Shown here: positions 816-64,000 of the stretch, one piece after another
How the letters are laid out: every line of letters begins with the position of its first letter
Position numbering within the stretch: position 1 is the first letter of the stretch
Assembly (NCBI GenBank): GCA_051362555.1
Contig: CM120640.1
Span: forward strand, 62,040,788-62,104,787
Reading direction: 5' to 3'
DNA: 64,000 nucleotides
Origin: Lingula anatina
Taxonomy: Eukaryota > Animalia > Brachiopoda
Notes under the pieces: model-generated
Told to the model about the DNA's origin: nothing
Seen by the model: only the letters and a program-made list of their open reading frames with translations
Database searches by the model: none
Made by a program: the position numbers and the translations under genes

Positions 816-1641
816 TTAGGTTAGCAGCGCCAAACATGACACTAACAACATCATCCAAATTAAACCTTTACCAATACCGCCACAATTCTTTGAATCTGAG
901 GGCTTAGCGCTGGCTTTTTCCTGTACAGGAGTCGTGGCTTCATCAGGACAAGGACACTTCGATCCTGGGCGTATCCGGACAGGCCCCCCTTGAACGTGAA
1001 TAGTCACATCCTTCAGAGCGTGTACAATGTCAGTCTTGAGACGCTGGATCATCTGAAGACCTTCGTTGTAATCAGCCAAAACTGCCGTGAATCTGACGAG
1101 TCCATAAACCGAAATGACATCTCTGCCCATCTGCTCGTCTTTTATTTCCGTGCAGTTTATCAGAGGTCCAGTCCATCCTACCAACTTCATATGCTCCTTC
1201 AGCTGTCTGTTACGTATCAGGCTACTACATGCAAACTGGTTATTCAGGCGCCAATTCACGGGTTCAAATTCAAGGAAAATGTCATATTGGAGCTTCGTGA
1301 GGTTGTACAAAATGGCCCGACAGTTCTGACCATCAAAGACGAAACCAAGAGGACAGATTATCGGTTGTACTGTTGGCTGAAATATATCAAAGACGTTGGC
1401 CATTCATTTTAATTATCGCTCGAGTGGAGTGTGTGTGTGTGTGTGGTGGGGTGGGGTGATTAGCATTATGCTATTTTAAGCATTTTACACAGCCTTAGTG
1501 GTGAAAAATTGACGTGAAAGTTTCTTATAAAAATTTATTATTGTTTTGAATGGTGCCTATGCCAGTGTTGAAGTACTTATAACTCTGCTGGGTTTCATCT
1601 TCACGAAATCTGTATTGCTAGCCTAAAGAGAGTGGCAATAA

Positions 1642-1676
<35 letters not shown>

Positions 1677-4600
1677 TCACTTTGGTCGTTGATAAGTGAA
1701 ATGTGCGCAAGTCACTTCCTATTATCAGAAGTGACGCTCTAAATTTGGATATGATAGAAAACTAGGCCCTTTCTTTCGAACATTCTAATTTCTTATTTTA
1801 ATCAAGCGCAAATGTACAGCTTCAAGATGCACATTGTTTTTTATCTTTAAAAATCGGACAAAGACCAGTAAAAGAATAGTAAAAGGGATTTGCGTATTAC
1901 TTCTGACAAAATTAATGAGTTTGGGGTCCATTATGTGCCGTTTGAGCTCGCAGATTTATTCAAAATCTAAAACTTTTTGCAAATTATGTAAATGTTTCAT
2001 GCATAACATTTTTACCATTTAAGATACAAAAATAACAAAGGGCAAACTTTGTAAACTGGAGTAGTTTTAGCCGTAATTTTAAGACTGAAAAGTACTAATA
2101 TTTATTTTTATGTGAAATGTGATGTTCGCAACACAACCTGATAATCACATCGGAGACACTGAAAACGTCTGAAAGGTTTAACAAAATTTCAGTCATCTTT
2201 TCCTTTGAGTATATTGTTTTGTTAGAATATCTTACTATTTTTACAGTAATCTAGAGGGGATAGAGGGACTTAAATGTACTGCGACAAGCTAGTTTACGCA
2301 GAATACATGTACGACCTAGTCTGAATGTACGGGCACGTGTAAACGTAGCTAAGATACACAGCTGACACTCATTATATAAACACCCGCGCACATATGCACA
2401 CACACACAACACACACACACACACACACACAAGTCAAATTTAAACAGCTGCGATCAGGTATTACCGGTAGCCTGAGTGTGGAAACACTGCTCTCCTCATC
2501 AGCATGATCTCCAGTGAACAAAAAGGCGCTAAAGCTCATTCCGAGGAATCCAAACTGACTCGAATCTAATGACGTCTCCCCTGCGGAATCATCTAAAACG
2601 GCACAAAAATCTATGTCATCCTACAGCAGCAACTGATAATTGTTCTTTTAGCAACATGGTTCAGTTAACTGTCTACATGTAGAAAGGGCCTGGGAACCTC
2701 AATGATCGTTTTTGGGGCGAAAATTATAATTTACGAGATTCCATCTTATCCTCAATGGTTTTCCACTATTTGCCCACCATCACCTGTCTAGTTCTAAAAT
2801 AAGAAATACACAATGGACATCGGTTTATAATACTACTTCTTTTCTTCACTTGGTTTCAGCTGAAAGAATGGTTATCAAATCGTATAAAAAACCCACATTA
2901 TTTGTAAATGAAGAAATATATGTGTACCTAGGGGTGAAAGCAAAGCCTTCATGAAAACTAAGTATAATGGAAAGCTTGAGGATAACAAAATGCCCTAAAA
3001 TATTAAATTTGCTCTTCGTCCATTTGACATTTTTTAAAATGTTAAGGCTTACACGTTTTTTCGGCTTACACAGTTGTTGGATTACAAAGTTTTTGGCCTC
3101 TTTGCAACCCCACAAACTGAAATGTGTGCACTATTTGTTTGGAAATTATATTTCAGGCGTACACATTACGTTAATATCATTAATCAACACTATTCAATGT
3201 TTATCACTAACCCGCTTCATTTCTTTTTAGAGTGTAGCCTAATTCAATAAATGGGATCAAATTTCGAACATCATGCTCGAGTTATTATTTAAATCGGTTT
3301 AGATCAAGAAGACATAACGGAAGTGCGTTATTGAGCCTACGTTAATAAGCCTAGCAGAGGTCATACCAAGGAATCATCAAGGAGTAGTTGAAAGGTTTTT
3401 GATGAATAACATTGCAAAGTCTCCCATCAGTATTATAAGACTTCTTTATTTTGATTTTTACCTTAATCCCGTTTCCATAAGTAAAATGTAATATAAAATA
3501 TTTGTATAGCATGATATATTAGAAATGTTTCTTAATGCAATGGGATTTTTCTTTTAGCCTTCTCCTATCATAATATTGGGAAAGCTCGGATTAAACCGAG
3601 ATGGTAACCTCCGACAATTTATAGTCAGTCCTCGAGATAGGTGTTAGAGAAGTTATTTTTTCTGTTGCATTTTGGAAGATCTAACTATGAGTAAAAGCAT
3701 GCAAGTTTGAGAATAAAAGGTACTTTTTGTATCCTCAAACTATTATTTTCTCTCTAACAATTTTGGTATTGCTAATAAAGTGTGGATCTTGTCTTACCTG
3801 AACAACGGCTCACACCTGTGTGACACATAAGGCAGTGGTAGTTCTTGAATACTGAGATGTCCCACCTATTTATATAAAGAACGGGGTTGGTGTACGAAAG
3901 GCATGCATCTTTCAGTGGAGAGTCTAATGGATATGGATATGAAGCACGTTGCATGCTGCCATTAACGAAAGTATAAGAACAAGGCTCTGAAGTTTCATCC
4001 TCGCTCGCGATACAGGTTCTTAGTTGCCATTCTTTGTGTGCAGCGAAATGCCCGGTACACCTATCATTTGCTAATGTCTTTTTTAGGATACACGAAGAGG
4101 ATGTACATTGCAAAAAAGGTTCGAACCGCTGGTTACTACAAACTATTTCGAACCCCCAAGGCACCAGGCCGTTCTTGATACCGTGGCACAGTGCGCAGTA
4201 TTTGTTACTGTAAGTCAAAAATGTCTTTGGGTCGGTAACTGGCTGGTACTGGGATAAGTCTTCAATTTGGATGATACCGGAAGAATTAGAGCATTTCAAA
4301 CGGTCCATGTCATTAAGCCAAGTGGAAGGACATTGGTCCACCATCCAGAAACTCAATTCCGAGTGCAAAAAACGCGTCTGACGCAGTTTAGGGCTATTTC
4401 TGCAAGAGGACATTTGCCGAATAGAACGAAAGTCGGGTTCCTCAAAACGACCCTGGTGGTCTCCATCCAACTGCGTTTTGTTATATTTCGAGACGGGAAA
4501 ACTTCTGAAAGGGGTCGCTGGTGAGTGAAGTTGGGTTTTGTTAACCGCATTCTGTGTTTGGTTACTGACAGAAACAGAACGTAACGCAGAATGGGCCGCA

Positions 4601-4884
4601 CTGTCACCGACAGACATTCTGGTGGAAGCCACGCATATCTGTGTTGGGTCCAAGGCGCCGTGGCAGCAATCGTCGAAGATGTGGCAAAGAAAGTCACAGT
4701 GACAGTGAACTTTAAAGTAAAAGATTTTGTAACCGCTTGTGCTTTGCCCACACACCCATTTATAAGGCTGGAGAGTAAGTTCTAGACCACTTGGTGAAGT
4801 TTCCTCGTGATCAACTTGATTCTCCGCAGCACTGGCTGTGGAGCCTGCAATAAGCAGCATCGCCAAGCGTAGACATGAATTCAT
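816..4884 (-). CDS. Secreted/membrane-anchored Cys-rich protein with a somatomedin-B (SMB)-like domain, ~591 aa, 3 coding exons; resembles the ectodomain of invertebrate SMB-containing GPCR-like proteins but ends in a single hydrophobic tail
   Basis: Exons 4884-3798, 2592-2465 and 1376-816 have GT-AG boundaries and compatible phases (1087+128+561=1776 nt, in frame). It starts with a signal peptide (MNSCLRLAMLLIAGSTASA) and contains the SMB-like motif CHCDFLCHIFDDCC. It also has two PV..(Y/F)xNxxCxxC motifs (PVTDPKTFLTYSNKYCALC; PVLY..FKNYHCLMC), CPLGFVFDGQNCR, and a C-terminal hydrophobic tail (GLIWMMLLVSCLALLT). Confidence 0.8.
1646..1675 (+). repeat. Poly-T tract (intronic)
   Basis: About 30 consecutive T visible. 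Confidence 0.9.
2398..2430 (+). repeat. (CA)n microsatellite (intronic)
   Basis: Directly visible dinucleotide run with one interruption. Confidence 0.9.
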
Positions 4885-5569
4885 TGTGTTTCTGGCGAGC
4901 TGTCTCCACAAAGCAAAAGAACGTCAGGAGAAGTGGCGCAATCTGAATTGTGTTACAAAATTTATAATGCTAGGAGAATGTTATGAAAGTCGTGATAATT
5001 ATATACATTGCACCTAACCCAACTGAAATTACTAGATTATATTACTTTTTCTGCTAAAGACTAATAATTTAACTGGTCACTGATGATTTTTCATTGCGTC
5101 CAATATATGGACATAATGAAGGACGCAAGCAGTGTTAAATAGATTCTTATTGGAATATGTTATGTGTATGTAAAAACTATTTCATACATTTCAATTATCA
5201 CCATTCTTCTACAATATAAAACATAGATGATAAACATCGAAAGTACCTATCAAATACAGAGATACTGAAAATCTATCTTGATGGATGCTGTAAATGTGAT
5301 GCCTAATATCGGGCGTTTAAATTTCTCCGATTTTACAATAATTTTGTTATGTTTGTAGATACAACCAGCAACTTTTTTCATTTAATAATGAACAATAGCC
5401 CACGTTATTAGACCTTTTTACCCAAAACACATTTGGTTTAAGAGGGACTTTGTGTGAAACAGTGTCTGTTTTTCACGCTGTTATATACTAGGCAGTTGTC
5501 ATATTTTTTACTTATTAAAGCTAAGATAAGATAATTACTCAGCGAAAAAATATATACAATATACAATAT

Positions 5570-14219: not shown

Positions 14220-14830
14220 TATTTGTAAGTCTGAACTATTTCCGATGACTCGTTTCTGTTTATTTGTTTATCGATTATACCTGAAACGGGAACCCTGCGC
14301 TTAATTTAATCTCTAATTATAAGTAGCAATTCATAATTCCTTTTCCACACATTTACATCACTCCAATTTACACCACTCCATTTACAACACACCAAATTAT
14401 ATTTTGGCATTCATAAACAACATTTTTTTTAGCGTTTTGCAACTCGTACGTTTTATAACTTTCCACCCGAGCCATCTAAGACAGCCACTTTAAACTGTAA
14501 TTAAAATCATGCATAGCCAATTAAGATTTGTTCATTTATAGTTATCTAGACTCCGCATTATCTTGAAAAGGTAGGCTATAATTAAATTGTGAATCATACA
14601 AGAGGAATAGGTAGATAATGCGAGAAGCTGATAATACAATAGAAAGCCGTCAGAACACTAGACTGTGTAGTAAACGTGAATAAGGCTTTTAGATATAAAC
14701 AAACCACAAAGATAAATGATAATGTCCTTTGCCCGCCTCAGTAGATGGCATCCGTCACGGAAGAAATACAACAGCCCATTTTGTTTTTAATTCGATGACT
14801 GTGAATTCATTACTTTAGACACGTTGAGAC

Positions 14831-14914
14831 TCATTCAAGATGGCGGGTTACCTTTGAGGAGACCAGACATTATCCACAGTCCTTATTTTCATCTCAAAGA
14901 CGGAATACAAATAG
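14831..14914 (+). promoter_or_regulatory. Putative core promoter / 5'UTR exon of the MINPP1-like gene (Inr-like TCATTC, YY1-like CAAGATGGCGG, 5-codon uORF)
   Basis: TCATTC at 14831, CAAGATGGCGG at 14836-14846, uORF MAGYL* at 14840-14857, and a strong donor AG|gtaagt at 14914/14915. The gene's ATG at 16579 sits directly after an acceptor (ctttttag), so an upstream exon is expected. Confidence 0.45.
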
Positions 14915-16578
14915 GTAAGTGACTTTTTTTAAATGAAAAATGTGTTTATTATCTAAAACTTTTGCTATAGTTTTGAAAACAGGTGTGCGTTGTCTTTATA
15001 CATCAGTACTGTGCATAACATCCTATCCCTCCATGGTATGAGCATTATTTCAGACCCTCATATACTTATAAGGTCACAAACGTCTGCATTTGTTTATGTA
15101 ACTTTACACTTCGTCCGAAACAGGGCGGGTATCTCGGGAATATATTGTATAAACCTTCAGTATAGATCACGTAAGTCAAAGATGTCAGTATTCGCTGACT
15201 GTATATATATGTGTTTCTTCAACTTGGGGCCGCTAAACCGTTACAGTCATATCGTGTACTGCTCTGTTAGTCATGCAAAATGGATATCATTTTAAATGAG
15301 GAAAAATTTATTTCAAGATCAACGTATTTGTTGCTCTTTCTGCTCAACGCGATTCAAGAAATATGTACCAGACGTAGTCTGTACCGTGTGTAGTCTAGTA
15401 TTTCATTGAAAGAAAACGAAGACAAAAGTAAACTCAGACGCAGCAACAGTTGCGAGTAAAAAGTCTTCTCATTCCCCAAATTCTTGTTAAAATCCATTGT
15501 GTTTTGAATGGTTTGTCATATTCATATTCATATCACGTGAACATGTTAAAGAATGGTTGAAGATATGCCGACACTTTGATAACGACGACCGTCGGACTGA
15601 TGCGTGACATGAAAGATCGCTGTCTGGGGAACTCGGGACTGGTTTTTAGTTTGCTGACAAAAATTAAGGACACCGGTTATAATGGGCCATTTCCTTTAAA
15701 TATAAGTGGGACCCCTTCTGCTTTACACTTGAGAATATCAAGAATCTATGACAAAATAGTTTTGTTAGTGGTTGAAGTGCAGTTGTGCTTGATAATTCCT
15801 GTTATTAATAAATAATTTTTCATAGCATGGACAGAAGAGCCGTGAAGAAAACGATGATACATGTATCACTCGACACTTTACCTACATGTACAGTGTATGT
15901 AAAAAAAAAAAGAGTGACTAAAACTTACTGTGTATGTAAAAGAAGAGTGACTAATACATATTTTAATGTGGCCCAACATCACCTTGGCTGCCACAGAAGA
16001 GTGGGCCTATACATGTTCTAGTATGATTAATATTATCTTAATTTATGGGCATTGGGCACGTACGGTAGGCCAAATATCATTATTGAGATTTTATTTCTCC
16101 ACGACTAAAATGGTTTTTATCTCACTCTTGTTGCAAGGGAATTCGAAAATATATCTTATCTTTCAGGTCTCAGAGATCAAAAACTTTATAAGGCCTTTTC
16201 ATGACAGTACGTACAATTAATTGATATGGCGTACCTATCGTTAGCATATACAATTAACAATGACGTTAGAGTGTTGGCATGCCCTTTAAAAGTGTCATTA
16301 TTTTCCTTGGTAGTTTTGCAGTTCTACGAAATTGTGTCAAGCGGTTTTTAATTATTGTGCCTTGCATATAATAATGAAATAACCGTAGTCTACTGTTATA
16401 TAAAAGTCCTTCTGCCTCCCCCTTTAAGCAAGTGTAAATTTTTCGACAGACACCTTCAGTTTTTTATTTATACGAACTGAAACTATTTTCAACTTTTCCA
16501 CAATTGATATTGAAAATAAGTAAGCTGTTAACGTAATTATGTAGAGTTAAATGATCATTCCGCCTATATGCTTTTTAG

Positions 16579-19500
16579 ATGGAATCCTGGGGTATCCTGT
16601 GTGCAGTTGCCTTGCTGTGTATATTGCCAACAGTCCATCCTGAGAAGAAATTGCTATGTTACATGACAGAAGGCGACGAATGCGGTCCTCACAATGGCAA
16701 ATGTTACGTGTCATTCAATGGAACACACGTTTTCATCTACCATAAAAACAAGGAGTCGCTAGAGTTCAGCATGGAACTTTCAAGAAACGACTCAAACTCG
16801 AAAATCTCAGCGTGTCCGTTTGACGAAACAACGGAGACATGTTTTATACGCACCACCACTGTACAGGAGGGCGCTACTGATCCAGACTTCTACATCTACA
16901 ATGGCACTTGGGTTGAAAAGTATGAAGGTGCATTTGATTATAAGGACTGCCCATGTGACGGCTATCATAATTATGAGAAATCTTACAGGTTCTATGGCTT
17001 AAAAACGTCTTACAACCAAGTTTACTGGGCACATTACGATGTAGCCGATGCTCCACCGGACGCTGGTACCAGAGCCAACGAAACCATTCCAGGTACCGCT
17101 CAGATACATAGTGGACACTTTTATTCATTTGCCTACGTGTAGACTTAATTTTCGTTAAATTTTACAATTGACGTCAAAATATATTTGAATAATATACACT
17201 TGACGTCAAAATATATTTGAATAATATATTTCAATCCTTTATTCAAATTTTTGAACATTAATTTTTAGCATGCTGCTGATTTTTGATTAGTCAAGTTTCA
17301 TTTCATTATTTCAGCAGGTTCATGTTTCATCTAAGAATTTCCCTTAATTCTTGACTTCACAAAATAAAGTTATATGTAATCAACTTAAAGGATTATACAT
17401 GTATACAAATGTACCTGTTTATTGATATTTTAGATATTTTAAAATGTCTCTTCTCACATTAACCTTATTCTCAAACTGCTTATTGATATTGCTCATTCAC
17501 CATTTGTCATTTCCTTTGTAATATTCAAAACCATTTATTGAGATTCCATCAGATTCCATCATATTGTTCTGCCAGTGGTCTTATGAGTGTCATTGAACCA
17601 TCCATGCACTTTAATGCAACACATAGCCTATATAGTAGGACTATAACATGTACTATTTGTTTGTCTTTTGAACACTATTTTATCAATTCTGAGGAAAAAT
17701 AATTTTCAGTTAATTTCATTATATTTCAGGATGTGAACCCGCATTCGTTTGGTATCTGGGTAGAGAAGCGGTGGAATACCCTCCCTCTGATCTAATCTCG
17801 AAAATGATAAGGAAGCTACCGACCATACGAGACACAATTCTTAAAGCCGAGCCTGCAACGCGTTCTTTTGAACAAGAGGCCAATCCTGATAACAGTAAGC
17901 ATGCTGTAATTTTTTTTACAGTTCAAAGTATTTATATTGCACTTTCTTCACAAAGAATTCTATCTGTGTATTTCTTTGAATTTCTTACAAAGATTTTTGT
18001 TTAAACTGCTTCTCGTTATATTTCTGCATACTTTGCAAATACTGAATAACGGGTTCAACGCGAGTTCAATAATTTAGTAATAGAAGCTATATTAAACCTA
18101 AACGTGACTACATCACGTGCATGCACGGCTCGCTCTGATCTAGTCCTCAAATCGAATTTGTTCCACGGGTTCTGTTCTGTGCAGGACAAGAACCTCTCGA
18201 TCCAGTTTCGATCTAAACGCAAGAATAGAGCGGTGACTAAAATGTTCCCTCCTCCAAACTGCCCACTGCAATAATGAGCATGACGCAAATGCTACACGCT
18301 GTTTGATGGCATAATGGCTCACTGTGAGCCAGGTGCAAGGCCCGACAGCAAGCAGTGCGTGAATGCTGGCACTACGTAACGATAACATGCCTGTTTATTG
18401 ATATTATTGACATTGTTCGCGTGCGATTATCACGACTGTCAGTTTTGCAATCGAATTTGGTCCCTGGGTTTCGCAATCAAAACTGAGAGTCGTGATAGCC
18501 GTTCACAAACAACTATGTTTTCATGTTATTTCTTGACTGCCTGAATGGCTGTTATGCCATCTATATTGAAAAGTAAATCATGCTTGCATACTTGTAAAAT
18601 GTCAAACAGCTTGTTGTCTTGCAAGCCCAAGGGCACCCAATCTATCGTGTAAATTAAAACACGTTTATAATATCGACGAATATCGGCGAATCCCAGGGAG
18701 CACAGTGGGCTATGTACCCCCTCCCCTTAGCTTTTACCACTCTTCTTCCCACATCAAAAGCAGTATAACAACCAAAATGAGACAAAACCAAGCAGTTGTT
18801 CCTTCCCTGTGCCCTATAAACCCCAGTAGAACATATAACAACTATATAATAGTTGCCGAGAGATGCGAGATTGAAAAAAAACTTGCGCTCAAAGTGAAGA
18901 ACCATCTCAAGTTATTTTGCAACAGCTGCTTTTTTTTTTTACTTTATTTGATTACATATCTAGGTAAGTGGTCATTTTCATTTCAGATACCATGTGCTGG
19001 GTGGACCTGGAAAGATTGAGGGCATGGACGACCCTACAGAAACCCAGGTTCGTTGACAAACCTGGAAATAAGGCTGTTGATGTTCAGTATGGAGGGAAGA
19101 TTACGTACGATCAAATATGGCATCTTTTTCAGATAGGTGAGCAATCGTAATCTATCGATGCGGAGAAGCCATACATATTCTGGCAACATCCGCGGGTACC
19201 TTCTGCATATTTTTCTTGACGTTAGGAAAACTGGCCATCCCCTATATTTCAAATCTTAAGTACATGTATTTTAGATATTACAGGACTGTTTCAACAATTA
19301 TTGACTCCAACCATTTTGTAAAAATGTGACGAGCAAGAATCCAACCGACAGCTGGGCTGCGTAACTCACTGTCTTGGTCTTTTGAAAATTTTTTTGAAAG
19401 TTGATTAGGAAATCTAGAAATGCTGTTTATTTTGCTTCAAAAATTGTGTAGACGAACATGAAGTATGATTTTATTGAAAAAAAAAGACGTTCAAAACATA

Positions 19501-22500
19501 AATAAGCAGGGGCAGTTACTGCAATAAAGCGCCAAGTCTTTGAAGTTCAATTTTGCCATAATAGATGGTGTGTGAAATTGGCACCGTTAAGTGTCCACTC
19601 AAAGCAGACTTGTCCCGCGTTCGTTCGTATTAGATAAAGTGTAACAGTTATTTGATCCCTCCAGGATAGCTGTATTTTACAGTAAAACTGACAAAGTTAG
19701 CTTCTCAAACGAATAGAGAGTGGGATTAGTTCACGTCACCAGAGATATGCAAAATTTAAAAAGTGATCTTTAGAGTAACGCCGCAACTTACATACCTAAA
19801 TGTGTCTTTTCACATTTCATTTTATTTTGATTTTACTAGGATTGAGACTCAGAAACCGGTTTCCAAAGCTGCTTGCTTCATTCAACAGGACACTTTTCAA
19901 CTTCAAAACCGCTGATGTGGAAAATATACGGGATAGTGGATTGGAAGTTGGGGCAGGCGTTTTTAATGTCACAGGTAGAATCTTACTTTCAATCGTAGTG
20001 TTTTTTCACGTAAATTTATGCGTTCCAGGAGAATAATTTTATTGAGTTAAGGCTTCAAAAACAGCGTTAAAAGATACACATGTAATCAACTTACTTTTTC
20101 CAGGTCTGTGGTTTGTAGAAAAGGATAGAAATCGGCGTAAATTTCTATCAAAAGTTCCCTTCGAAGCTGTGGGTCAGTCAGCTGATCACCTACTGTCTTA
20201 TCACACCAGTTGTTACAAATATTTTAAGGTAAATACAAAAATATTGTATTTTTTATGATGTTCTCTGAAAACTTAATACGTGTCGCCTAAGTTTGCTTTT
20301 AAAGATAAGAATCAATTTTTACCGTTTTTAATTGATGGTTCGATTCTCTAACTATAATTCATGTACAGATTCTAAGTGGGTTAATGTCTGCTTAATTGCC
20401 ATTTGTTCTTTGCATTTCGTTTAAATTTCAATTACGGAAGCGATTATGCAGATAAACACAGATATCCCATTTCCAACTGTTTAAGCCAAATCTGTTACGT
20501 TACTACTGAACTTGAGCAAGATTTGATTGTCAAGGCTTGCAATTAGTGTATATCTTATTTTTAGTTGATACATTGGACTAAATCGTTTTTCAACCCCTTG
20601 AGCGTAGCTGTAGGTCAAATCATGGCTAGATTAATTAATGAATGCTCCACCCTATTTCGTGCTAATGGTTACATATATATGGAATCGTGTCTCCAATCTT
20701 TTGTTAGACGTGTAATGCACTAATCAACCGAAATGTAGTCAATGTACCGTGTTCTACTGTCGTGATCTTTAGTTTATCCTAACACTGTCTGTCGCTATCT
20801 ACTGGGTAGGCAAACTGATTATCGACTCCTATACAACGTCCAGTCAAGTTTAGTCGAGGATATTCAATTACAAATTGAGGCATCCAGACTGACGGTCTTT
20901 CTTGTCAATTTAAATAGAAAAAGCACCCATTTTCCATTAAGAGTGCCTGGGTGATAATTATAAGTTCATGTGGGAAATAAAAGAAACATCAATTTGCCCT
21001 TGCAAGTAAATACCTCCGAATAACACTACATACTCACACAGACATCCACAATTAAGTTGCTTTCTAGTAGTTTAGCTGTTAAACAAAGTATATTATGGCG
21101 TGCGTTATACTTTTTACAGCTGTAATTCCACCGCTAGCTAGCTCAGGGTATCGCTCATATAATTGTAAATGCTATCCCCTCTTTTTAAGCAATCAAGCTA
21201 TGTACAACAGGAGGAGAAATTTATGAACAGTGTTCCCGTTCAAAGGATGATACAAGGTCTGAAAAAACGACTGGGACTGAAGCATTTATCGTTCGGTAAT
21301 ATCACTCTTCTTTTATGTATTTAATTATAAATGAAGACGGGGAATAAGATCTTTGAGTCACACATCATAACAACTGTAGTATATATACATATTTTTTGGA
21401 GGGGGGTGGAGGGTGGCAAATCTTAAAATAAAGTTTTGTCGTCATTTTTAGAAAAAAACTAGGATAACTCGATTCAAATACATGGAATTAAAAACTGTAA
21501 ATTGCAGGCATTGTGAACAATAATTGTAAATATTAAATATCATTTCAAAGGTGACGCAAGATTAGCATATGAAGCCTGTCGTAGTGAGGATGTGTTGTAT
21601 GAGAAGGGGGGAGACTATGGGCCGTCTCCATGGTGTGCGATTTTTACCGAAGAAGACCTCAAGGTGATGGAATATATGGAGGATTTAGTAACGTACGCCA
21701 AAGTTGGCTATGGCAGAGCCATAAACCAACTGATGACTTGTGAATTAGTCGATGATTTGGTTACCTATGTGGAGTAAGTATACTTTGATCGAATCAAGTT
21801 GTGGCTTGTACCTGTTTTTTTTTTTTTTTAGACTGAGATATTTTTATATCGAGTTCAGCAAAATAATAAATAAAAAAATTAACAGCGCAATTGTGCACAC
21901 CATAAATATAGATCTGTAACCAATTCCAAACTACACAAATATGGCACTCTAAGAAATGGTCATATTTGAGAAAATTAATCAACTAGTTTGGTAGTATTAA
22001 AAGATCTTCAAGACGCCAGCTTAATTCGCATTATAATCTTATTTCAGGCAAGTCAAAGAAGGAAAGATAAACATGAGTGGAGTATTCCGGTTTGCGTCAA
22101 AAGATGTGCTTCTGTCTTTCTTCACAGTAATGGGCCTTTTCAAGGACAAGTTGGCCCCGGTAGCTGGAAACTACGAGACGCAAAGAGATCGCAAATGGCG
22201 AACAAGCCTTATTGCTGGTTTTGCTTCCAACCTTCAGGCTGCCCTCTATACTTGTCCCATGGATCCCCAAACCAATAAAACAAAGGCATACGTTCAAATA
22301 ATGGTTAATGAGAAGGAAAGATTGTTCCCAGGTTGTGATTCAGCTTTCTGTGATTATGATATTTTCTACAAAAAACTGAAGCCTTTTGCACAAGCTTGCG
22401 ACTTTCAGAGGATATGTGGAGATATTGAAGTGTCTTGGAGAAGGAGCGCCGGTTTTTCTTTACATGCTTCTGCTCAAAATGCCATGTATTTGTTGATGGC

Positions 22501-22543
22501 TGTACTTACATACATCTGCATCTTCAAAAGCCATCAGGTTTAA
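16579..22543 (+). CDS. MINPP1: Multiple inositol polyphosphate phosphatase 1-like protein (histidine acid phosphatase fold), ~637 aa, 8 coding exons; catalytic motifs degenerate (probable pseudophosphatase), extra N-terminal Cys-rich module, GPI-like C-terminus
   Basis: Exons 16579-17092, 17730-17894, 18987-19136, 19840-19974, 20104-20228, 21190-21295, 21551-21773 and 22048-22543 (1914 nt, GT-AG, phases compatible). MINPP1 hallmarks: YGLKTSY, GCEP, MCWVDLERLRAW, GLRLRNRFPKLL, DHLLSYHTSC, SPWCAIFTEEDLKVMEYMEDL..Y.K.GYG..IN...TC.L..D, MGLFKD, RKWRTS..AGFASNL...LY.C, VQIMVNEK..FPGC...CD, CDF..IC. Confidence 0.9.
17168..17229 (+). repeat. 32-bp tandem duplication, each copy carrying a palindromic CRE (TTGACGTCAA)
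   Basis: ttgacgtcaaaatatatttgaataatata at 17168 and 17200. Confidence 0.8.
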
Positions 22544-23342
22544 GTCATCGAAAACAACTTAAAACTTCAACGGCCATTAATTAGTTTAACTTGTGGTCGG
22601 GTATGACTTTTCAATGGATGTCATAATTATGCAACATGCAAATAAAGACTGATGACATTAATATAGTGTTAAGGATTATGGACCTAGGTGCTAGCAATTA
22701 ATGTTAAATGAAAACCCAAATATCGTTGAACGCCTACTACCACGTAAATGTTGGTCTTTCCTTATACACCAGTATTTAGATGTACTAATGGATTATTCAA
22801 GAGCATAAGCAAAAACACCTTTTTCATGATGATATTTTCCTCTTTAAAGAAAACATGAAACTGAGTGCCTTCTTCTGGCAAGCGCTCTTCTTAAAACCCT
22901 TATGATTGTCATCAGTATGTCAAGTGTTACGCTCGTGTGACATGGATTAAATTTGGTATTTCCTCAAAGAATAATTATGTTCTTTATAAAAATCTAATAA
23001 CCTGTCTATTATAGTCACTAATGTTTAAGTCATTTATTGGTTATCAGAATGGCCACAAATTAAGTAGCTGATATGTCCATGTGCACCTGTCTATCATTAG
23101 TAGAGCACTTTGAGATGCTTAATGCAGGTTTCGTAAAAATACTGTTGATTAATTTGGCCCATTTTGATTGGATGTTACCTAATTCAAGATTTACAATAAT
23201 TTATTAAGATGAAAATGCTTGTTTCGAGCGTCGCCAATAGCATAATTCAAGTTTTTTTTTTCAAAATCGGTCAACTGTAAATAACATAACAATGTGCAAA
23301 CAACATTGGCCATTTCCTCACAGCAGAAGGTGCGTGCAGCAC

Positions 23343-23435: not shown

Positions 23436-23591
23436 ATAGAGAAATTAACAAAAGAGGGGCATCTGCAGTGAGGTATTCCTGTTATTCGCCCTAGTCTTTC
23501 TCAACATCTTCAAACCGCCAAAGAAAAAAGTATTTACTTTTCTAGTAGTCGACAAACCATATTTGCAATGAAGGCGATGCGCTCGGTGAAA

Positions 23592-25864
23592 ATGAGGCAG
23601 ACAGAGTCGATAGTATTGATGTTGTTATTTTCCAAAGTGGTACTGATTGGTGCACACCCATTGCCATCAAATCCAGAACACTTTTACAATGGCATTCCTC
23701 AAGAAACGTTTCAAGTATTCCTTGCAGATGGAAGAAGACAAATAATTGAAACGGCAGACAAAACGGAGCAAGGTGGGTTTGGATCATTTTCTATTATTAT
23801 TTTTTTTTGTCATAACTCCGTTATGAATGTTATCTGCACGTGATCACTATACATTGAATGCGCAGAGATGGTGCAGTTGGCATTCAGGATAAGTTAAAGT
23901 AAACGCATTAACAATCCGTTTTCATGAAGTATTTCACGCGAATAATTCACACAACTACCAGTCTTGAAAAGCGCCGAAAATGCCGGATTGATGATAAAGA
24001 GGGCAAGATGCTCGTGGTTCTATGCTGATAAGGTTTAAGTACTTATAATTGGTCACCCCATCGTTTTAAAACATTGTACTTTAGTATGGTAGCTTTCGCA
24101 GACATACTTTCAGTCATAGCGGTTAATGGGAACACATTAGAGAAAACGACAGAAGAATACCTATAAGCATGTCACGAAAAAAACTGCAAACACCTATACA
24201 TGGGTCACAATAATTGCCAAAATCGAATTAGCTCTTTTTTTTTTCATTTCCTGATTAAATGTTGAATCTTAACCCGCAGAGAATTGTTATTGAACAACTC
24301 TCCCCAACTGGGATAATCAAATGCCATGTTAAGGATACATGTAAGTCAAAGAAGCGTACGGTTTTTGTTTGCGAAGTGGGCGCTATTCGCATCTACATAT
24401 TATTGAATTACTCATTTTACTTAGAAAAAGAAAGAAGCAACCCCACTAAACCACATAAAAACAGATAATGCATTTGATCAAAGTACAGCCCATATGTCGG
24501 TTGACTGCCAAGCATTTTATTTGGAAGTTTGTGTTATGTAAAACAACAACTTTCCAAATTTGATGAAGTGATAACGGCTCAATGTATTTATTACATACTT
24601 TTGAGGTAAAATGAAATACACTTAAGAATCATCTGAAATTCTCCCGCCTTCTCATAAACCTGATGACCATATCCTAATCAAAGGGCTATTTAAAAAGCTC
24701 ATGCACATATAAAAACATGGCCCATATATAATGTATAGTACTGTACATATCTCTTGAAAGTGTTTCATAGTTTTATGAGACCCTAACGGTTCAAAGAACA
24801 CGGAAATCCACTTTCTTTAACGGTGCTTTGATTTCAACTATATTTGCAGTAAAAACACCTCCAGATTCCAAATTGATATCCTATTCTTAAGGCACTGGCC
24901 AATAGAGAATTACATCATGTAAATAACTGCAAACAGACACGAGTTTTGTGTCCTGTGATAGTGATGTGATTTCAGCGGCGGGTCTAGGACATCTGAAAAG
25001 AAGAAAAGCAGATTTTGCACCACCCCCCCCCCCCCCCCCAATTAAAATAGTTTTATTAGCGCAGTACTTTTGAGAGCTCGGAACTGCCTCTTTGCTCCCC
25101 TGTTGGAGAAGACAATGGGGGTGGATAGACAGACCATCATGTTTTGGAAAAAGGCGAGCTACATGTACCTATGGGTTTTTATCTATTTTATATGAATATA
25201 TCGAATGACCAGTGATATGACATGAATTCGAAATGATACAATCGTTGATCATCAAATGCAAATCTGTTGGTCATGTTTTCAATGTAGAGCTCCTGTTACA
25301 CTTGGCTTGCAGCCTCTTGCAGAACGTATTTTGTGTCATTCTCAAGGGTTGTAACACTGTAAGCAACGTGATAGCCAAGACTGAGATTTATTGGGAAGGT
25401 TGTATTTCCTGTGTTGTAAACTTGATGGGCACAATACGGCTGAAAATATGCATATGTAGACACCCAACAATAACCTAAACTCTTTGAAAACTAATTGCTG
25501 GACAAATAACGCCCTATTCAAAGGTGGGGTTCTTCATTGTCATTAAGGCATTCATGTGTAAATTATCTTTATTCCAATAGTCCTTAGTAGTTTACAATAT
25601 ATCTTAGAGGTAGATTATTAGAATGTTTTAAAGCTACTAAAAACATAGCTTATTTTGTTTTTAATGATGGTTGCAGACAATTACCAAGGCCAGATACCAA
25701 GACCTGCTCCTCTCAAAGATCTCGTGTTTTCACGTGCACGGCGAATGTGGAACAAATCCAGAAGTGGCAACCAAAGCTCACGGTGTCGGCTGTGGCTCGA
25801 AGGCGGAGCAGCAGGATTTTTCAAAATTGGCTTCAAATTATGCGACCACTTACTAACTGTCTGA
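23592..25864 (+). CDS. Candidate orphan secreted prepropeptide (~166 aa, 4 exons) with basic cleavage sites and two Cys pairs
   Basis: Exons 23592-23772, 23962-24032, 24280-24340 and 25677-25864 are GT-AG and phase-compatible (501 nt). Signal peptide MRQTESIVLMLLFSKVVLIGA-HPLP, then ...MIKR|ARCSWFYADKRIVIEQLSPTGIIKCHVKDT...FSRARR|MWNKSRSGNQSSRCRLWLEGGAAGFFKIGFKLCDHLLTV*. Exon 1 is well supported; the downstream exon choice is tentative (weak acceptor at 23961). Confidence 0.5.
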
Positions 25865-33131: not shown

Positions 33132-36100
33132 CTACTCCAAAAGGAGTCTCCAGAGGGCAGCTACAATGGCGACCATTACAGCCAGCAGACGATAGGCAGG
33201 CAGGCTGGATATGGCGGTGTTACACAGGTCACTGGTGCAGCATTCAATTGACGCCCCTATTGTCGCTGATACACACACAGGGGAGCAGGATCGGGTTATC
33301 AAATCTCCAACTACAATTTTCTAAAAAAAAATTAAGTCATCAATACAAAAAAAAAACAAAAAATTATAACCCTTAAAAGTTTTCACAGTGTTCGTTGCAT
33401 GTTTATGGGGCTGTCTTAAATGAAAAAAATCATCAGTTATCTCTATTTCTATGTAATCACCGAATTGCTTTATGATAGCTTGGTCCAAGGTAATACAGAT
33501 TTCGATGAATGAAGTGAATAACAATATGCAAGCTGCTTGTTTGAAAAACAAAATAACAGCGTAATTTTTTTCTGGAAAATTATGCCGCTTTACTTGTTAA
33601 TATTATTAGTGAACATTAGATAAATAATAACACAGATAAATGGAAACGTATAAATCTGACGAACTGATAAGAGTTACATAGAATTCTGATAAAAAAATTC
33701 ATATAATTTGTCAGCTGATAGATTTTTCTTTACGCTAAAAAAGTGTGTGGGGGGGGAGGGGAGAGAGGAGGTATTTAAAAATCCACGAAAAGTCTTTGAT
33801 AATATACCACGTTATTTCATTTCCAAAATTAGGTCTTTTGGTAAGAAGTCCATGTCCGCGAATTCTTATTAAAAAATTCATATAATTTGTCAGCTGATAG
33901 ATTTTTCTTTACGCTAAAAAAAGTGTGTGTGGGGGGGGGGGGGGGGGGGGAGGGGAAAGAGGAGGTATTTAAAAATCCACGAAAAGTCTTCGATAATATA
34001 CCACGTTATTTCATTTCTAAAATTAGGTCTTTTGGCAAGAAGTGCATGTCCGCGAATTCTTATAAAAAAATTCATATAATTTGTCAGCTGATAGATTTTT
34101 CTTTACGCTAAAAAAAGTGTGGGGGGGGGGGGGGGAGGGGAGAGAGGAGGTATTTAAAAATCCACGAAAAGTCTTTGAGAATATACCACGTTATTTCATT
34201 TCTAAAACTAGGTCTTTTGGTAAGAAGTCCATGTCCGCGTAACCCCCCTTCCCCCCCTCCCCACCGCTTAGTCCATATCTTATAATTACCGTGCATGATC
34301 CGATGCAGGTGGTGGTAGGAGGAGGTGACAGGGTGGTCGTCCAGCTCCACGCACCACACTTATCGTTTGAAGCCGAGTTGCAAGAGTAACATTTAACTGC
34401 TTCTGTCCCTAAAATTGACAAATTTATATTTCTGATATTAGGGAAAAGGGATAAACTCTGTTCATGAACGTAATGTTAACAAGCGTTCTCCTTCTTTGGT
34501 ACATTTATTATAAAAACAATGATGAAAACTAGACAGCAAAGCTAACAAACACACATACACACATCAAACAAACAAGCAACCAAAAAAGCTACTTTATTAA
34601 AAAAAGGGGAAAGAGACAAAGTCATTAAGCAATTTTGAAGTAAAATAAAAGTTTGGCCGTTAAAGGACGAACGTCACAAAAATACATGTTTTAAAAAAAT
34701 CCAAAAAATTCAATTAAAAAATTATCTGAACATGTCAGTTTTTGAAAGGAACCTGCTCTATTAGCATACACAGTTTGAAACTTAATAGGCTTATCGTCAA
34801 AATAATGTAAAAAAAGAACTTTTGTTAAAATAATCCAATCATGTTGATTATCGAAAGGAACATTTCTAACCAAACAATGCTACTCAGTAAATTTAAAACA
34901 AAAATATGCTTTAGCAGCAATAGGAACTCATACTGTTTATTACAATTTAGTTTAGCTCTTATTTATATAATATATATCTTAACCATTTTCATCTATAAAC
35001 TTCTTTGTATTTTATGTTGTACAGTCTATTGAACATTTTATGGATTTTAGACTTGAAATAAATAAATATATTATTATTATTATTATTATTATAATTCGGA
35101 CATTGACAGCACGTATACGACACGTACAGGCAGCGATTAGCATAATCACACAGGTGTACAGTATTTATAAACATACATGTCTGTATAATTCTTATCTTTA
35201 CGACATAATATACCATTTACCAGGACCTCAGATTAATTATGTGCCCTTTTCTCCAGCGCTTGCACTTTTCCTTTTAGGAAGCAAGTTACATACAGTGTAT
35301 TCCCATATTTTAATATCAGATATCAAATACAAGCATATGAAACTGTTTTGAATAAAGACAAATTGTCCTTGGTGATCAGCATATTTTTCTCTTATTTTAA
35401 GTCTTAAAAGGATAGCTAATGTATTTTGAGATAATGCATTTGAAGATGGAACATGTATGAAAATTTCTTCAGCAAAAAAAAAAAAAAAAAAAAAAAAAAG
35501 TCATTAAGTTCAACCTAGTGCAATGAAAGTGGAAATTTTATATTAATTTTGGAAGTTTTTATTTATGTATTTTTTACATTTTTACACACTTTGTGAATTC
35601 TTACTAGCGCCCATGCATATGGACTTCCTGTGCATGTATACTTGTACCATTGTTTTGAAAATAAAATTATATCCTGTTGTTTTTTTACCCTCTATTTTTT
35701 ATTGAATATAAAAGAGGTAACTGTTCATATCAGCCCAAAATGGATTCTCCTGGAGTAAATGACAATTTCCCCCTTCTTACCAATAGTTACTGGGGTACTG
35801 AATCAGTTTTGACATTCAAAATTAGTCGATCTGTACTGTAATTTTTTAATTTATTTTAATATTTCAAAAGATTATTACAGAGTACAGCCACCATGTGATT
35901 GGATGGCAAGAACAGTTTCCTAAATAATTGTGAAAACTACCATTTTGGTGGTAAAATGGAATATATATATTGTATTCCTATGGGTTCTTTACACTATTTA
36001 TTCTTAAATGTGAATCTCATAAAAACAGTTGTTAACCCTTTAAAATATTCATTTAAGAAACGATGAATTTGTCTGTGCAAAATAAAGAAAAACAACTTTG

Positions 36101-43616: not shown

Positions 43617-44412
43617 ATACATGAGGTACAGGAACATCTCTTTAGTAAATCACACATGCAGAATGCCAGGCAGTCCCTTCCAGCTCACCTGTGCAGTGGC
43701 ACGGGCACTGGTAGTACAGTGGTACTGATAGGTGTAGCACGTACAGAAGGAGTGGTGTGTGTGTGTGTGTGTACGTGTGGTGGTGGCACTGGTGGTGGGG
43801 TAATCGAACGGATCAAAACATTGTGTCTATTCGGAGAGCCTAGAGAAAAGCTGAATAGGTAGATTATCTAACATACTGTTGAGTTTTTCAAAAACCTTAA
43901 TTGGTTAATGATTACATAAATCACACAAAATGACTATAGTCTACCACACTAGTTTATCATAATGCAAAAATATTTTAATGATGTAGAATTTTCAATAAAT
44001 CTTATGAATTTGCCACGTATACACAATATCCTTTATTCAGTTATCAGCCATAGGGTGACAGCCAAGTATATGTGTGTACTAGTAGGTCAGTGGTATGTGT
44101 TGGTAGTATTACTTTTCACATAACCTGGCTTACCTACTGTAGGTCTTTAAATAACAGAAATTTGGAGATGAAATCTCGTCACAATAGATATATGTCAACG
44201 CACGGTATGCTTTACCGCCCAGTTCTCAAAGGGGAAATCCGAGATAGTCTTGAAACGAGGATGACGACGGTGTGTGATGTCACGCGTGAATAGAAAAGAC
44301 TGGATGAAATGCAGCTCAAGTCCAGAAAAATGTCGCCATTTTTTACGAAAATTTGCGAGACTTTCTGCCACAATGATACAAGCAGATAATGTAAAAGCTT
44401 TAATATTCTTAC

Positions 44413-45133
44413 CCTTCAATCCATAATGTGGAAGCAGAACAAAATGATCGTACCCATCTAATCTATGCATACGTTCAGGAGCAAGGGCTGCTATATGACT
44501 AGAGTTGAAATACTTAAAGAAGTTCCAGAGATCAACAAAAGGTCGCAAAAATAAGATATCTGTGTCCACATACAGCACGGAATCAACATCCTCCAAGAGA
44601 GTCTGCAAAGAGAGAAATTGGATCCAGTTGCCGTCTGCAGGTTTAAAAATTGTTTTCAAAAATACTCATCAGAATCAAATACTTAAGAATTCCTTTAAAA
44701 CTGACCCAGACCACAACTCCACTCCCTGCTTCCAAACATGAAACTAGTGGTGGGAAACAACTGCCTCTACTGCTTGGGGTTTTATCTGTTCATGAACCTC
44801 AATACTTATAAATTCATTTTTGTTATATCACCATTTAAATCGCCATTCAAGATTAAAATCTAATTTTCAAACGAATATAACAAATTCCAAGTAATGGAAT
44901 TTATCTATCTCTTAAAGTTAAGTGAAAGAGTGTATTAGAACAGACTGGATAAATGTATTGCAACCGACACATTTGGTGATTTGCCAGCTTACCGGTAAAA
45001 ATAATCTTTGAGTGACACATGGTTTATTTGCTTTTAAACTCTTCCATTCTTCAAAACTGTTTTCCTCAGGGTATGTAATAGGATAAAGCTGGTAGGTAAA
45101 TGTGTCCTGTAAAGCAGCTGTCCATTTGTCCAA
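44413..45133 (-). pseudogene. GXYLT1: Glucoside xylosyltransferase (GXYLT/shams, GT8)-like partial gene; two conserved exons only, possibly a truncated paralog or pseudogene
   Basis: Exon 45133-44993 (LDKWTAALQDTFTYQLYPITYPEENSFEEWKSLKANKPCVTQRLFLP) and exon 44602-44413 (TLLEDVDSVLYVDTDILFLRPFVDLWNFFKYFNSSHIAALAPE...HYGLKG) are GT-AG and in phase, with the DxD motif intact. A possible type-II TM exon lies at ~45864-45670 (GFYIIIIIVLGLCVIIFID). The expected flanking conserved exons were not found. Confidence 0.75.
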
Positions 45134-53300: not shown

Positions 53301-55915
53301 GTATTTTTGTCTTAGTCGGTGCTTTGGCCTGGGCGTGACGCTCGTTGAAACACACCCTTGTCAAAATTTTGGAAAATTCAATGCTAAATATCCCCCAAAC
53401 CGAAGGAATTATGGGAAAAATTACTACAGAAGTCTGACCGAAAGTCATATGTGGAGATTCCAAATATGCCCTAAGATTTGACTTTTGACCTTTATTTCAA
53501 GGTCAAACGGGCCAAAATTTTCTAAAAATGGGACTTTTCTGCAAAAAAATATTTGTTTGTACCAATTTTCAGAATCTACATAGACCTAAGCTCTCATATT
53601 ATGGTGAGGGGTTACAATCAGGGTCTCCTTTCATCTTTGAGAGTTTGGGGTCAATAGGTGCATTTTCATGGGAGAAGCGGCCATTAGATATGAAACTGAA
53701 AACTCTCTCAAATTCTGGAACCGTAAATGCCAGAGACCTTTTGAATTTTGCAATTTGTAGGACTTGTCAAGCACAATACTGGAGGTGGTGTCCACATTTT
53801 TGTTTTCAATACGGTTTAGGCGTTGCGCTATATAAAAAAGTACAACGCAATATTCAGTGGTGAAAATAAATTGTGAATTACTCCAAAATTAGCAGAGATA
53901 TGCCCATAGTTCCTAATGAACTTGAACAGGAAGTCATATACTGGCAATCTAACTGTGACCTTGAAATTGACCTTTGACCTACTTTTCATTATGAACTGCA
54001 CTTTGCAATTTTTCTGATCTTCATATCTCCAAAACTGGCAAAGATATGACCATAGTTACTATTGAACTTGATTAGGAAGTCATATACATGCAATCTTACT
54101 GTGACCCTGAAATTGACCTTTGACCTAATTTTCACCATGAACTGAACTTTGCAAATTTTCTATCCTTTATATCTCTAAAACTGGCAGAGATACACCCAAA
54201 GTTACTGTTGAACTTGAATAGGAAGTCATATACTGGCAATCTAACTATGACCTTGAAATTGAGCTTTGACCTACTTTTTATGATGAACTGCACCTTGCAT
54301 GTTTTCTGGCATTTATATCTCCAAAATTGGCAAAGAAATTCCCATGGTTACTATTGAACTTGAATAGGAAGTCATATACTGTGACCTTGAAATTGACCTT
54401 TGACCTACTTTTTCACCAAGAACTGAACTTTGCAAATTTTATATCCTCTATATCTTGAAAACTGGCAGAGATACACCCAAAGTTACTGTTGAACTTGAAT
54501 AGGAAGTAATATACTGGCAATCTAACTGTGACCTTGAAATTGAGCTTTGACCTACTTTTTATGATGACCTGCACCTTGCATGTTTTCTGGCATTTATATC
54601 TTCAAAATTGGCAAAGAAATTCCCATGGTTACTATTGAACTTTAGGCCTACCCAACTACCAGACTCGGCACATAAGGTTCCTGAATTAACCGGTTTATCG
54701 GACCACACTACCCAGTTTCAAGGTGGGTGTCAGATCGCATTTCGAAGTATCAGTCAGAAAACCGACAGGATGAGCCCTCGGTAGTCCTACAAAAATTGTT
54801 CTGGGGTATGATACTCCTTAATGCGATCTGACACACACCTTGAAAACGGGTAGTGTGGTCCGATATACCGGTTAATTCAGGATCCTTATGTGCCGAGTCT
54901 GGTAGATGGGTAGGCCTGAACTTGAATAGGAAGTCATATACTGTGACTTTGAAATTGACCTTTGACCTACTTTTTCACCAAGCACTTAACTTTGCATATT
55001 TTCTTGCCCCTCATATCTTCAAAACTAGCAGAGATATGCCCATAGTGTTGCCCAAGGTTTACTCTTTTGTCAGCATACTACACATGCAACATTGATAACA
55101 CATTTCAAGGAAAACCAATAGGTCTATTGTCTAGAAAATCACAGGAGTGATCAATGTTAGGAAAATACAGGTCAATTCCAAAATCTGCATGATTGGACCA
55201 TTTTTTTTTTTTTTTTTTTTTTTACATATTTTGAGAACTCTTGTTGATTGCATTTTATAGAGCTTGTTAAGCACAAGACTGGAGGTGGTGTCCCTTTTTT
55301 TATTTGGTTTTCCATACGAATGTGCTTACTCCAGCTGGTGGTACAATATCTGGAGGCGGTATCGCCTCTCTGATCCTCTAGTTATACATTTTTTCTTGCT
55401 GAGAAACCATGCTGTATTTTTCAGCCTTAACATGTCAAAGAACAACAACTATGGGGATAATGGAGCCTATATAGAAAGAGATAAGTCCAAATTGACCAAT
55501 GGTGTCAAGGAAGAAGAATCGGACCCCCCACTTACCAATGGGCATTCTGACTCCCAATCCCAGGATGGACCTGTAATGAACGGTATTAATGGTGAGGGTG
55601 ATGAAGAAAATGGTGCCATTGATGGTCACGACAAAGAAAAAGAAGAGGCAAAGACTAATGAACAGAATACTTCACCTCCAGAGGAAGAAAAGAAAGTAGT
55701 TGAAGAAGCCGAAATAACCGTTCAGACACCCCCGGTTTGTTCAGGAGAACCCACTGCAGGGGACAACCAGCCTAAAGTAACCTATAGTGCCACTTTCACC
55801 CCCAAAACAGAAGGGGACCCAGGAGATGGCTTGATATACGGTACGACCTTCCGAAATATAGATAAAACTGGATGATTATAACTGAAAGCTGTGGAGTCCT
55901 GTGGAACTGGTAGAC

Positions 55916-55958
<43 letters not shown>

Positions 55959-61900: not shown

Positions 61901-63225
61901 GGTATTTTTATTTATTTATTTATTTATTTTGGCAGTTAAACAGTTTTTTGTGAAAATTTAATTTTTCACATATTGGCATTTTCAAGGTGTGACTTTAAAG
62001 TTCCATGATCTTGAAGACTTTTGCTTGTCACATTTTCTGAATGTCCATGTTACTAATATTTTATTAATAACATTTGATTGTCATTATGCTGTTAAACATT
62101 ATGTAATGTTGCATCAAAATTTGAAGAAACCCCTATTTTGGGCACTGCTCCTATGATGACCATTTAAGGGAAATCATGTCACTTACTGTTCTCAAACTTA
62201 CAGGAAAGAAACATGGGTCTAACATACAGCTTCAATAGGCAACGCAGTCTGTTTGGTAAATTTTTCTGGCAATTTAACAGTTTTTTGTGAAAATTTAATT
62301 TTTCACTTATTTGCATCTTTATTTTCTGTTCTTTGTCTGTACATTTGACAGCTTTGCTGCCTTGTTTAAAACAGTTTTAGAAAAATGTTGACACTGTTTT
62401 CATGTGCTCATGCAGTCTTAGGTAATAGTATTGTTGGTCCACGTGTCTGCCTGTTCATCATCAAAAAAATATATATATTTGTTGTGCTCCAATGTAAATG
62501 CTAAAAGTGATAACTTAATGTGATTTGGTGTGTTGATGGGCTACATTACCTATTGTTTCTGAGCTGTTTCTGCCATCCAGTATATCTGCCATAGTTTGAT
62601 GAGCAGTAATAAGGAGGGTCATGTAGTTGCACTTACTCAGTATTTATGGCTTTTCTGCTGCACCGATTGCCACTAGTAAATGAATGCAAATTAAGTGTTA
62701 TTATATTAACAGTATTTCATTACCATCTATATTTGTTTTTATTTGTACTGTAAACACTTTTCCACTTGCATTATTAATTTTTTAAGCAATTTAAAATTAA
62801 TAATAACATTTGCAAAGCAAAATAATCAAATTCTCAAAAAGAATTGCAGTGAATTGTATTTTCATATTTTGTGGTGATTTCCAATTTTTTATTTACAGTC
62901 AGGGACAACTGGAAATCCTAAAGGTGTTATGTTGAGCCATGACAATGTAAGTATTAGCTGATATGGGCAGGGTTTTACTTTGGTTAGTCTAGTACGGTTT
63001 CATATTGTAGAACACAAATCCTTTAATCAATCTGAATTGAATTCAGCTAGTATGAAGAGCTAAAAAAATTATACATTTCTATTTGAATATTCCAAGTGGT
63101 GACCACCAATGTGGGCCCTAATGACAGAGGATACTTATCTGTGTGGGACAATATCAGCCAGTCTGCAAGACTGTTCATGTCACATTGCTGGTATTGACTG
63201 TTTCCTAGCATTAATGGTTCATCTT

Positions 63226-63274
<49 letters not shown>

Positions 63275-63697: not shown

Positions 63698-64000
63698 GTA
63701 AGGTTATTGAAGTGGGGTTGTGAAGATGTTATTTCAAGAGAAATTTGTAGTGTGGTTTGGTAAAACAATATGTCATTCCATTCATTCTTTATCCACCCAA
63801 GGAATGATGCAGTGTCATTAATCTGTTCTGATATAATTATAAATATACATATAAATCTATAAAACTGGAAGACTTGGGAGGGGAGTTTGTTTATAACAGG
63901 CAATATTTCCTTTGGTGGGGGTCGGTTTTGATTTTCAAGGAAAACTAAACATAGCATAGCTATTCACTTCAAATCCTATATGTAACAAGAAATTTTATAT

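Follow-up and report, generated by a model that had tools for sequence, protein, structure and literature searches.

Gene structure of a MINPP1-family locus in Lingula anatina

The stretch of DNA analysed here, referred to as the window, covers 64,000 nucleotides of the brachiopod Lingula anatina (contig CM120640.1 of assembly GCA_051362555.1, forward-strand positions 62,040,788 to 62,104,787). Its plus strand carries, at 16579-22543, the coding part of a gene of the MINPP1 (multiple inositol polyphosphate phosphatase 1) family, whose product (hereafter the query) is the subject of this report. The coding exons splice to a 1914-nt open frame of 637 residues with GT..AG at every intron, and the translation is identical to XP_013399528.1 (P0001, 'multiple inositol polyphosphate phosphatase 1 [Lingula anatina]'); the gene is thus already annotated, as an ordinary MINPP1. 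An original prediction, made from the letters of the window, had described an eight-exon gene with intact frame and splice sites and replaced catalytic motifs. The frame indeed reads through and eight exons are coding, but the gene has nine exons in total, since an overlooked non-coding exon ending at 14914 joins the acceptor directly before the ATG.

This 5′ exon (14794..14914, start approximate, plus strand) shows read depth mainly in bin 14794-14990, is followed by a GT donor at 14915 and is joined to 16576 in RNA runs X8 and X9. Its 3′ end varies between alleles in these two runs (14896-14914), giving two joint forms directly before the ATG. Coding exon 1 (16579..17092) specifies a predicted signal peptide (residues 1 to ~20), a Cys-rich N-terminal extension (residues ~21-135, 16639-16983) and the MINPP-type motif YGLKTSY (16993-17013). 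Exon 2 (17730..17894), with read joints on both sides, carries the degenerate motif I, REAVEYP (17762-17782), exon 3 (18987..19136) the hinge and exon 4 (19840..19974) the segment TADVENIRDS (19908-19937). Exons 5 (20104..20228) and 6 (21190..21295) are defined by frame and read joints. Exon 7 (21551..21773) encodes alpha-domain sequence with the PWC motif and matches His_Phos_2 by itself, and exon 8 (22048..22543) contains the degenerate motif II, FASKD (22091-22105), the KWRTS motif, a hydrophobic C-terminal tail (residues ~619-632) and the stop codon (22541-22543). All three degenerate segments lie where the original prediction had placed them. The 3′ untranslated region was taken as 22544..22900 from read depth reaching bin 22696-22900 in run X4, with AATAAA at 22641 and ATTAAA at 22946. 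When exon 8 alone was submitted to a word-index search, P0001 was the sole match returned among 201 longer candidates, and a tandem copy of the gene was not found within the 64-kb window. Two Lingula PCGF3 proteins, unrelated to P0001, also appear in its 90% cluster, apparently a clustering artefact.

Replacement of the catalytic core

According to PMC7762957, the MINPP catalytic centre comprises His45, Arg44, Arg48, Arg142 and the HAE motif, and the hinge reads GxLTxxG. We examined the corresponding positions in an alignment (A1) of the query with 101 roughly full-length homologues picked from 151 matches, with fragments and tandem fusions left out. Four of the five core residues are replaced in the query and only the first Arg (R183) is kept, whereas all five are present in 85 of the 102 rows. 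In motif I, R183 and P189 are retained next to H184E, G185A and R187E, the nucleophilic His being found in 98 and the second Arg in 95 of the 101 homologues; this bears out the proposal that RHGxRxP had lost both residues. Similarly, TADVENIRDS proved to be an altered substrate-binding Arg region: the third phosphate-binding Arg (BlMINPP Arg142, Arg in 89/101) is N305 (codon at 19923). The second His of HD/HAE, present in 92/101, is also gone (H490S).

FASKD had been read as a lost proton-donor motif. This holds for the His, but where HAE has its proton-donor acid the query is still acidic (Asp492), as are only 35 of the 101 homologues (E or D). Compared with an active MINPP1, the query therefore lacks the His of RHGxRxP, the third Arg and the second His and retains the acid. 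RHG-intact MINPP1s often have no acid at HD/HAE (HSA, HSG), and D or E occurs at either column in 44/101.

A separate MINPP1 with an intact RHG motif, which the original prediction had suggested looking for, exists in Lingula: XP_013417862 (P0005), named MINPP1, is the second-best non-self match (32% identical) and carries RHGYRYP, the third Arg and FAHSAT, being one of the proteins with no acid at the HD/HAE position (Ala in the Asp492 column). BLASTP aligned the two Lingula proteins as RHGYRYP/REAVEYP, ERTRMS/ENIRDS and FAHSAT/FASKDV. Forty-six alignment columns are conserved in 80% or more of the homologues; this paralog keeps 45 of them and the query 37. The nine changed columns are H184E, G185A, R187E, G269Q, R305N, H490S and three conservative hydrophobic swaps; with six of nine changes at active-site or hinge residues, the loss is concentrated on the catalytic site. 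G269Q (19112-19114), which had been overlooked, affects a hinge Gly found in 100/101 homologues, the hinge of the query reading GKITYDQ. The charge of the pocket has changed as well: K/R minus D/E over nine pocket columns, counted by alignment column, gives +1 for the query and +5 for the paralog, and at least +3 in 95/101 homologues.

In E. coli AGP, as reported in PMC8938923, the swap of the nucleophilic His to Asp alone costs about 10^5-fold. Taken with the replaced core residues, this cost in a related enzyme argues strongly that the query has lost normal phosphatase activity, and the RefSeq and UniRef name multiple inositol polyphosphate phosphatase is likely wrong as to activity.

Transcription, splicing and purifying selection

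We mapped reads from eight of the nine RNA runs listed, using ~6-30% of each. All seven coding introns were seen in RNA reads as GT..AG joints, introns 1-4 again in a second mapping, so that the predicted splicing is borne out by reads at every coding intron. In X4, almost all depth stemmed from fragments whose first mate maps to the minus strand, as would fit a plus-strand RNA sequenced from a usual stranded library. The gene is expressed, with 13.5, 13.8, 6.6 and 12.4 reads per million in X4, X7, X8 and X9 respectively; X1, X2, X5 and X6 gave 0.56, 0.08, 0.6 and 0, the two mappings having used different stretches and X6 being too little to count as a test on its own. This suggests tissue- or stage-restricted expression.

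An alternative exon supplying RHGxRxP was found neither in the frames of the window nor in the reads. The reads contained only the canonical joints of exons 1, 2 and 3, and a motif-I profile built from the other 101 proteins hit, in all six frames of the window, only exon 2 (E 6.9e-10; next 0.43).

Selection was assessed from the differences of runs X7, X8 and X9, which represent a divergent population, from the reference. The union of 46 listed coding sites contains 30 synonymous and 16 nonsynonymous differences, i.e. a ratio of nonsynonymous to synonymous polymorphism (pN/pS) of 0.14 without weighting, or 0.19-0.21 once transitions are weighted; neutrality is rejected at a binomial p of 1.8e-7 or lower. 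The ratio rises to 0.27 if all 7 weaker, unlisted differences are counted as nonsynonymous. By region, synonymous and nonsynonymous differences number 21/10 in the core, 5/1 in residues 1-135 and 4/5 in the tail; exons 1-5, for which the difference list is complete, have 20/4. Listed differences in the motif segments are solely synonymous (V186, V303, S309 and A489), and no indels are listed in the gene. Values of ~0.14-0.21, far below 1, indicate that the gene is maintained, as originally proposed, and is not a decaying pseudogene. The compared sequences lie within or near one species, and the constraint is in consequence a current one that does not speak to its age.

Predicted fold and location

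The spliced protein matches Pfam His_Phos_2 (PF00328) over residues 273-560 (E 2.4e-16), with 60.5 bits well above the curated cut-off of 23.6. The AlphaFold model has a mean predicted local distance difference test score (pLDDT) of 80.3, residues 23-119 being under 50. It superposes on BtMINPP (4FDU, VIA) over 374 residues with Z 32.9 and a root-mean-square deviation of 3.3-3.4, and Foldseek matched it to fungal phytases and bacterial MINPPs (E 2.5e-17). The two-domain fold, alpha/beta plus alpha, is thus predicted to be intact. The query shares this fold with MINPP1 and MINPP enzymes (BtMINPP, BlMINPP 6RXD-G and XP_013417862), together with YG.KT.Y, PWC, KWRTS, FASN, the structural Cys and Trp residues and the signal peptide, and its tail is like that of the Lingula paralog. 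It differs from them in having no nucleophilic His, two of three catalytic Arg missing, no second His, no hinge Gly and a longer N-terminus.

The hydropathy profile has a signal-like stretch at the N-terminus and a hydrophobic tail at the C-terminus, and nine N-glycosylation sequons are present. By hydropathy the tail may be a signal for a glycosylphosphatidylinositol (GPI) link or a membrane anchor; a single transmembrane tail fits equally.

The N-terminal extension was another feature overlooked by the original prediction. The YG.KT motif is preceded by 138 residues in the query against a median of 36 in the alignment, and the added segment (~115 residues) is Cys-rich and acidic (20 D/E vs 11 K/R). 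No Pfam family was found for exon 1, the best PDB sequence match had E 2.8 and the Atlas gave no usable feature match (template modelling score 0.42 or less). A wide fold search reached at best Z 2.3, on a poor single-sequence model (pLDDT 37). An apparent internal repeat in the query, FNGTHV/YNGTWV, was discarded as chance, 879 of 2000 shuffles being equally good.

Relationship to MINPP1 and degenerate paralogs elsewhere

The named top matches of the query are MINPP1, MINPP1-like or hypothetical proteins, and Atlas clusters give MINPP1 at 0.93-0.94. By descent and fold the query belongs to the MINPP1 lineage. With motif columns removed, it grouped with XP_013417862 in a quick 102-row tree (Shimodaira-Hasegawa-like approximate likelihood ratio test 90) and again in a careful 40-row tree (88/89); the trees thus give moderate support to the paralog as its sister.

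We then searched for REAVEYP-type orthologs. In a search of 50%-representatives, in which relatives more than 50% identical would sit inside the query's own cluster, the best 150 of 1245 contained no other match exceeding 37-38% identity. In word-index searches, 3 of 7996 near-length candidates were retained (the query and two proteins at 29%), none of 977 shorter ones and, among 201 longer ones, the query alone.

Core residues have been replaced in other lineages too. Two or more of the five (two to four) differ in 9/101 homologues, although alignment gaps account for some of the mismatch in P0088 and P0102. Such degenerate 'MINPP1-like' proteins occur in Penaeus (XP_042884956, XP_042857369, XP_042858143) and in insects (Spodoptera XP_022831181, Callosobruchus CAI5819599, Chrysoperla XP_044732086, Wasmannia XP_011699298, and also Anticarsia), and Penaeus japonicus has at least three of them. 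They resemble the query in the replacement of core residues and differ from it in the substitutions themselves and in their separate tree places. The degenerate rows P0088, P0094, P0107 (Penaeus), P0046 (Spodoptera), P0102, P0052, P0037, P0154 and P0055 fall in separate clades. A single clade of the query and eight arthropod degenerate forms was rejected by the approximately unbiased test (p 0.005); this group had been set by motifs and was tested after inspection of the trees. Judged by their tree places, degenerate MINPP1 paralogs arose separately in arthropods (shrimp, insects), where they probably constitute a recurring set of pseudoenzymes. The separate shrimp and insect origins suggest that the extracellular MINPP1 scaffold has been repeatedly reused without catalysis.

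Tandem MINPP1 proteins of two or three domains were also encountered (P0004, P0007, P0008, P0010 and P0012), which may be gene-model fusions; in those of Adelges, one domain or more carries degenerate motifs.

A putative non-enzymatic binding protein

The gene is expressed and under purifying selection and its product has lost core residues, as is characteristic of a pseudophosphatase; the query is likely a pseudophosphatase acting as a non-enzymatic binding protein of the cell surface. The reading we favour, with a probability of about 0.7, is that of a folded, surface-displayed, membrane-anchored MINPP1 pseudophosphatase whose old cleft binds a ligand other than phytate. Duplication would have left the enzyme role to XP_013417862. 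In the query copy the phospho-His nucleophile would then have disappeared, together with the Arg residues clamping the scissile phosphate, the A pocket becoming E184/E187/N305/S490/D492. Signal peptide, sequons and tail would direct the protein to the cell surface or the secretory lumen, and the added N-terminal segment may provide a second contact surface. The fall of the pocket charge tally from +5 to +1 points to a cation or amine as ligand: being more acidic, the pocket would prefer a cationic ligand (amine or divalent metal) to a polyanion. We infer, as the original prediction did, a loss of activity and a new role in binding, adhesion or scaffolding.

A precedent is provided by the flea proteins XcAP-1 to -3 (PDB 8GDL), which, according to PMC10728186, lack both His, are inactive on p-nitrophenyl phosphate (pNPP) and bind amines and leukotrienes. 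They share with the query the superfamily branch, the replacement of both His (the second by Ser in XcAP-1 too) and secretion, and the model of the query matches the XcAP structure with Z 21.4 at 16% identity. XcAPs are soluble, of ~40 kDa, compared in that paper with prostatic acid phosphatase and changed from His to Gly at the first His, whereas the query has a MINPP1 scaffold, Glu in place of this His, a predicted membrane anchor and the extra N-terminal segment. By this analogy the query likely works like the flea pseudo-acid-phosphatases. The interest of the query is limited by this experimentally documented case from its own superfamily branch. No catalytically dead MINPP1 paralog was found in open-access papers; subscription papers could hold one. 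The Lingula pair, in which one member is intact and the other, 32% identical to it, has had its pocket fully remodelled, offers a direct test of non-catalytic MINPP1 functions.

Several observations weigh against the proposed binding role. The sister grouping with XP_013417862 is unstarred, and the query forms a long branch (1.54). The ortholog searches found no counterpart outside Lingula, so the replaced residues are seen to be constant in Lingula samples only. The predicted localisation of the query is read from hydropathy, and the hydrophobic tail is not peculiar to it (40 of 102 rows, the paralog included). Finally, the basic-to-acidic swaps of the original prediction are real for H184E and R187E, but K142, R183 and R524 remain and K491 has been gained; some phosphate affinity could persist.

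A bolder version of the binding model, which we consider possible though doubtful, takes the cleft as charge-inverted to an E184/E187/D492 carboxylate site for Ca2+ or a cationic ligand, or for metal-dependent chemistry. Together with the Cys-rich domain, it would make the query a lingulid-specific surface receptor or mineral-handling protein and place it with several other dead MINPP1 paralogs that arose independently among invertebrates.

The basic residues just listed, and the intact predicted fold, would also suit a dead enzyme that keeps an affinity for inositol phosphates, polyphosphate or some other anion and acts as a trap or buffer, or one that modulates the activity of the intact MINPP1 paralog. 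We hold this unlikely: of the three Arg that grip the scissile phosphate two are missing, with Glu in place of one, the nucleophile site is itself Glu, and the pocket charge has dropped as described.

It is quite unlikely that the query is instead a rewired enzyme, in which E184, E187 and D492 would serve as metal site or carboxylate nucleophile for a different hydrolysis. Three carboxylates do stand in catalytic-site columns, with Asp in the acid column where the intact paralog has Ala. No metal-dependent member of the histidine-phosphatase fold is known to us, though no search aimed at one was made. According to PMC8938923, a phospho-enzyme can arise on an Asp nucleophile within this fold; that variant, however, was slowed ~10^5-fold with its other catalytic residues unchanged, and the query has also lost two Arg and the second His.

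A structural or regulatory protein of the shell matrix would be one particular form of the binding role, and the calcium-phosphate mineral of Lingula makes the idea appealing; we rate it as very improbable. The acidic N-terminal segment would suit such a function, and expression differs strongly between the RNA samples, whose tissues are not given. According to PMC12580751, chondrocytes on their way to hypertrophy express vertebrate MINPP1, and despite this expression MINPP1 knockouts have normal bone. The 54 shell-matrix proteins listed for Lingula in PMC13425148 (Data S1) do not include XP_013399528, a short proteome list being one that misses low-abundance proteins, and this accession occurs 0 times in the supplement of that paper against 18 for a control accession. 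The term MINPP1 or MINP1 was likewise absent from the supplement text of the genome paper (PMC4595640), a weak negative given that this paper uses its own gene ids.

A decaying pseudogene, assembly error or mis-spliced model, to which the long branch and the 0-0.6 reads per million in 4 of 8 runs might point, can be dismissed with near certainty in view of the intact frame, the splicing of all introns, the lack of listed indels, motif codons changed only at synonymous third positions and a pN/pS that stays low even at its highest estimate.

Other features of the window

About 1 kb downstream of the putative pseudophosphatase gene lies a plus-strand open reading frame (ORF) with a signal-peptide-like start (23568-23843) and no Pfam match. 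On the minus strand, 816-4923 contains two long ORFs (383 and 195 residues) of one Cys-rich protein, secreted or membrane-like in character, with no Pfam match at E 0.01. Pieces of a Ly6/uPAR three-finger (Quiver-like) gene were recognised at 33189-34475 (minus strand), with weak Pfam matches to QVR and Activin_recp. An exon with a YVDTD motif at 44195-44665 (minus strand) had no Pfam match at E 0.01; we take it to resemble a GT8 xylosyltransferase. Finally, a multi-exon gene at 55261-63763 (plus strand) encodes an AMP-binding enzyme according to Pfam, presumably similar to an ACSBG-type long-chain acyl-CoA ligase.

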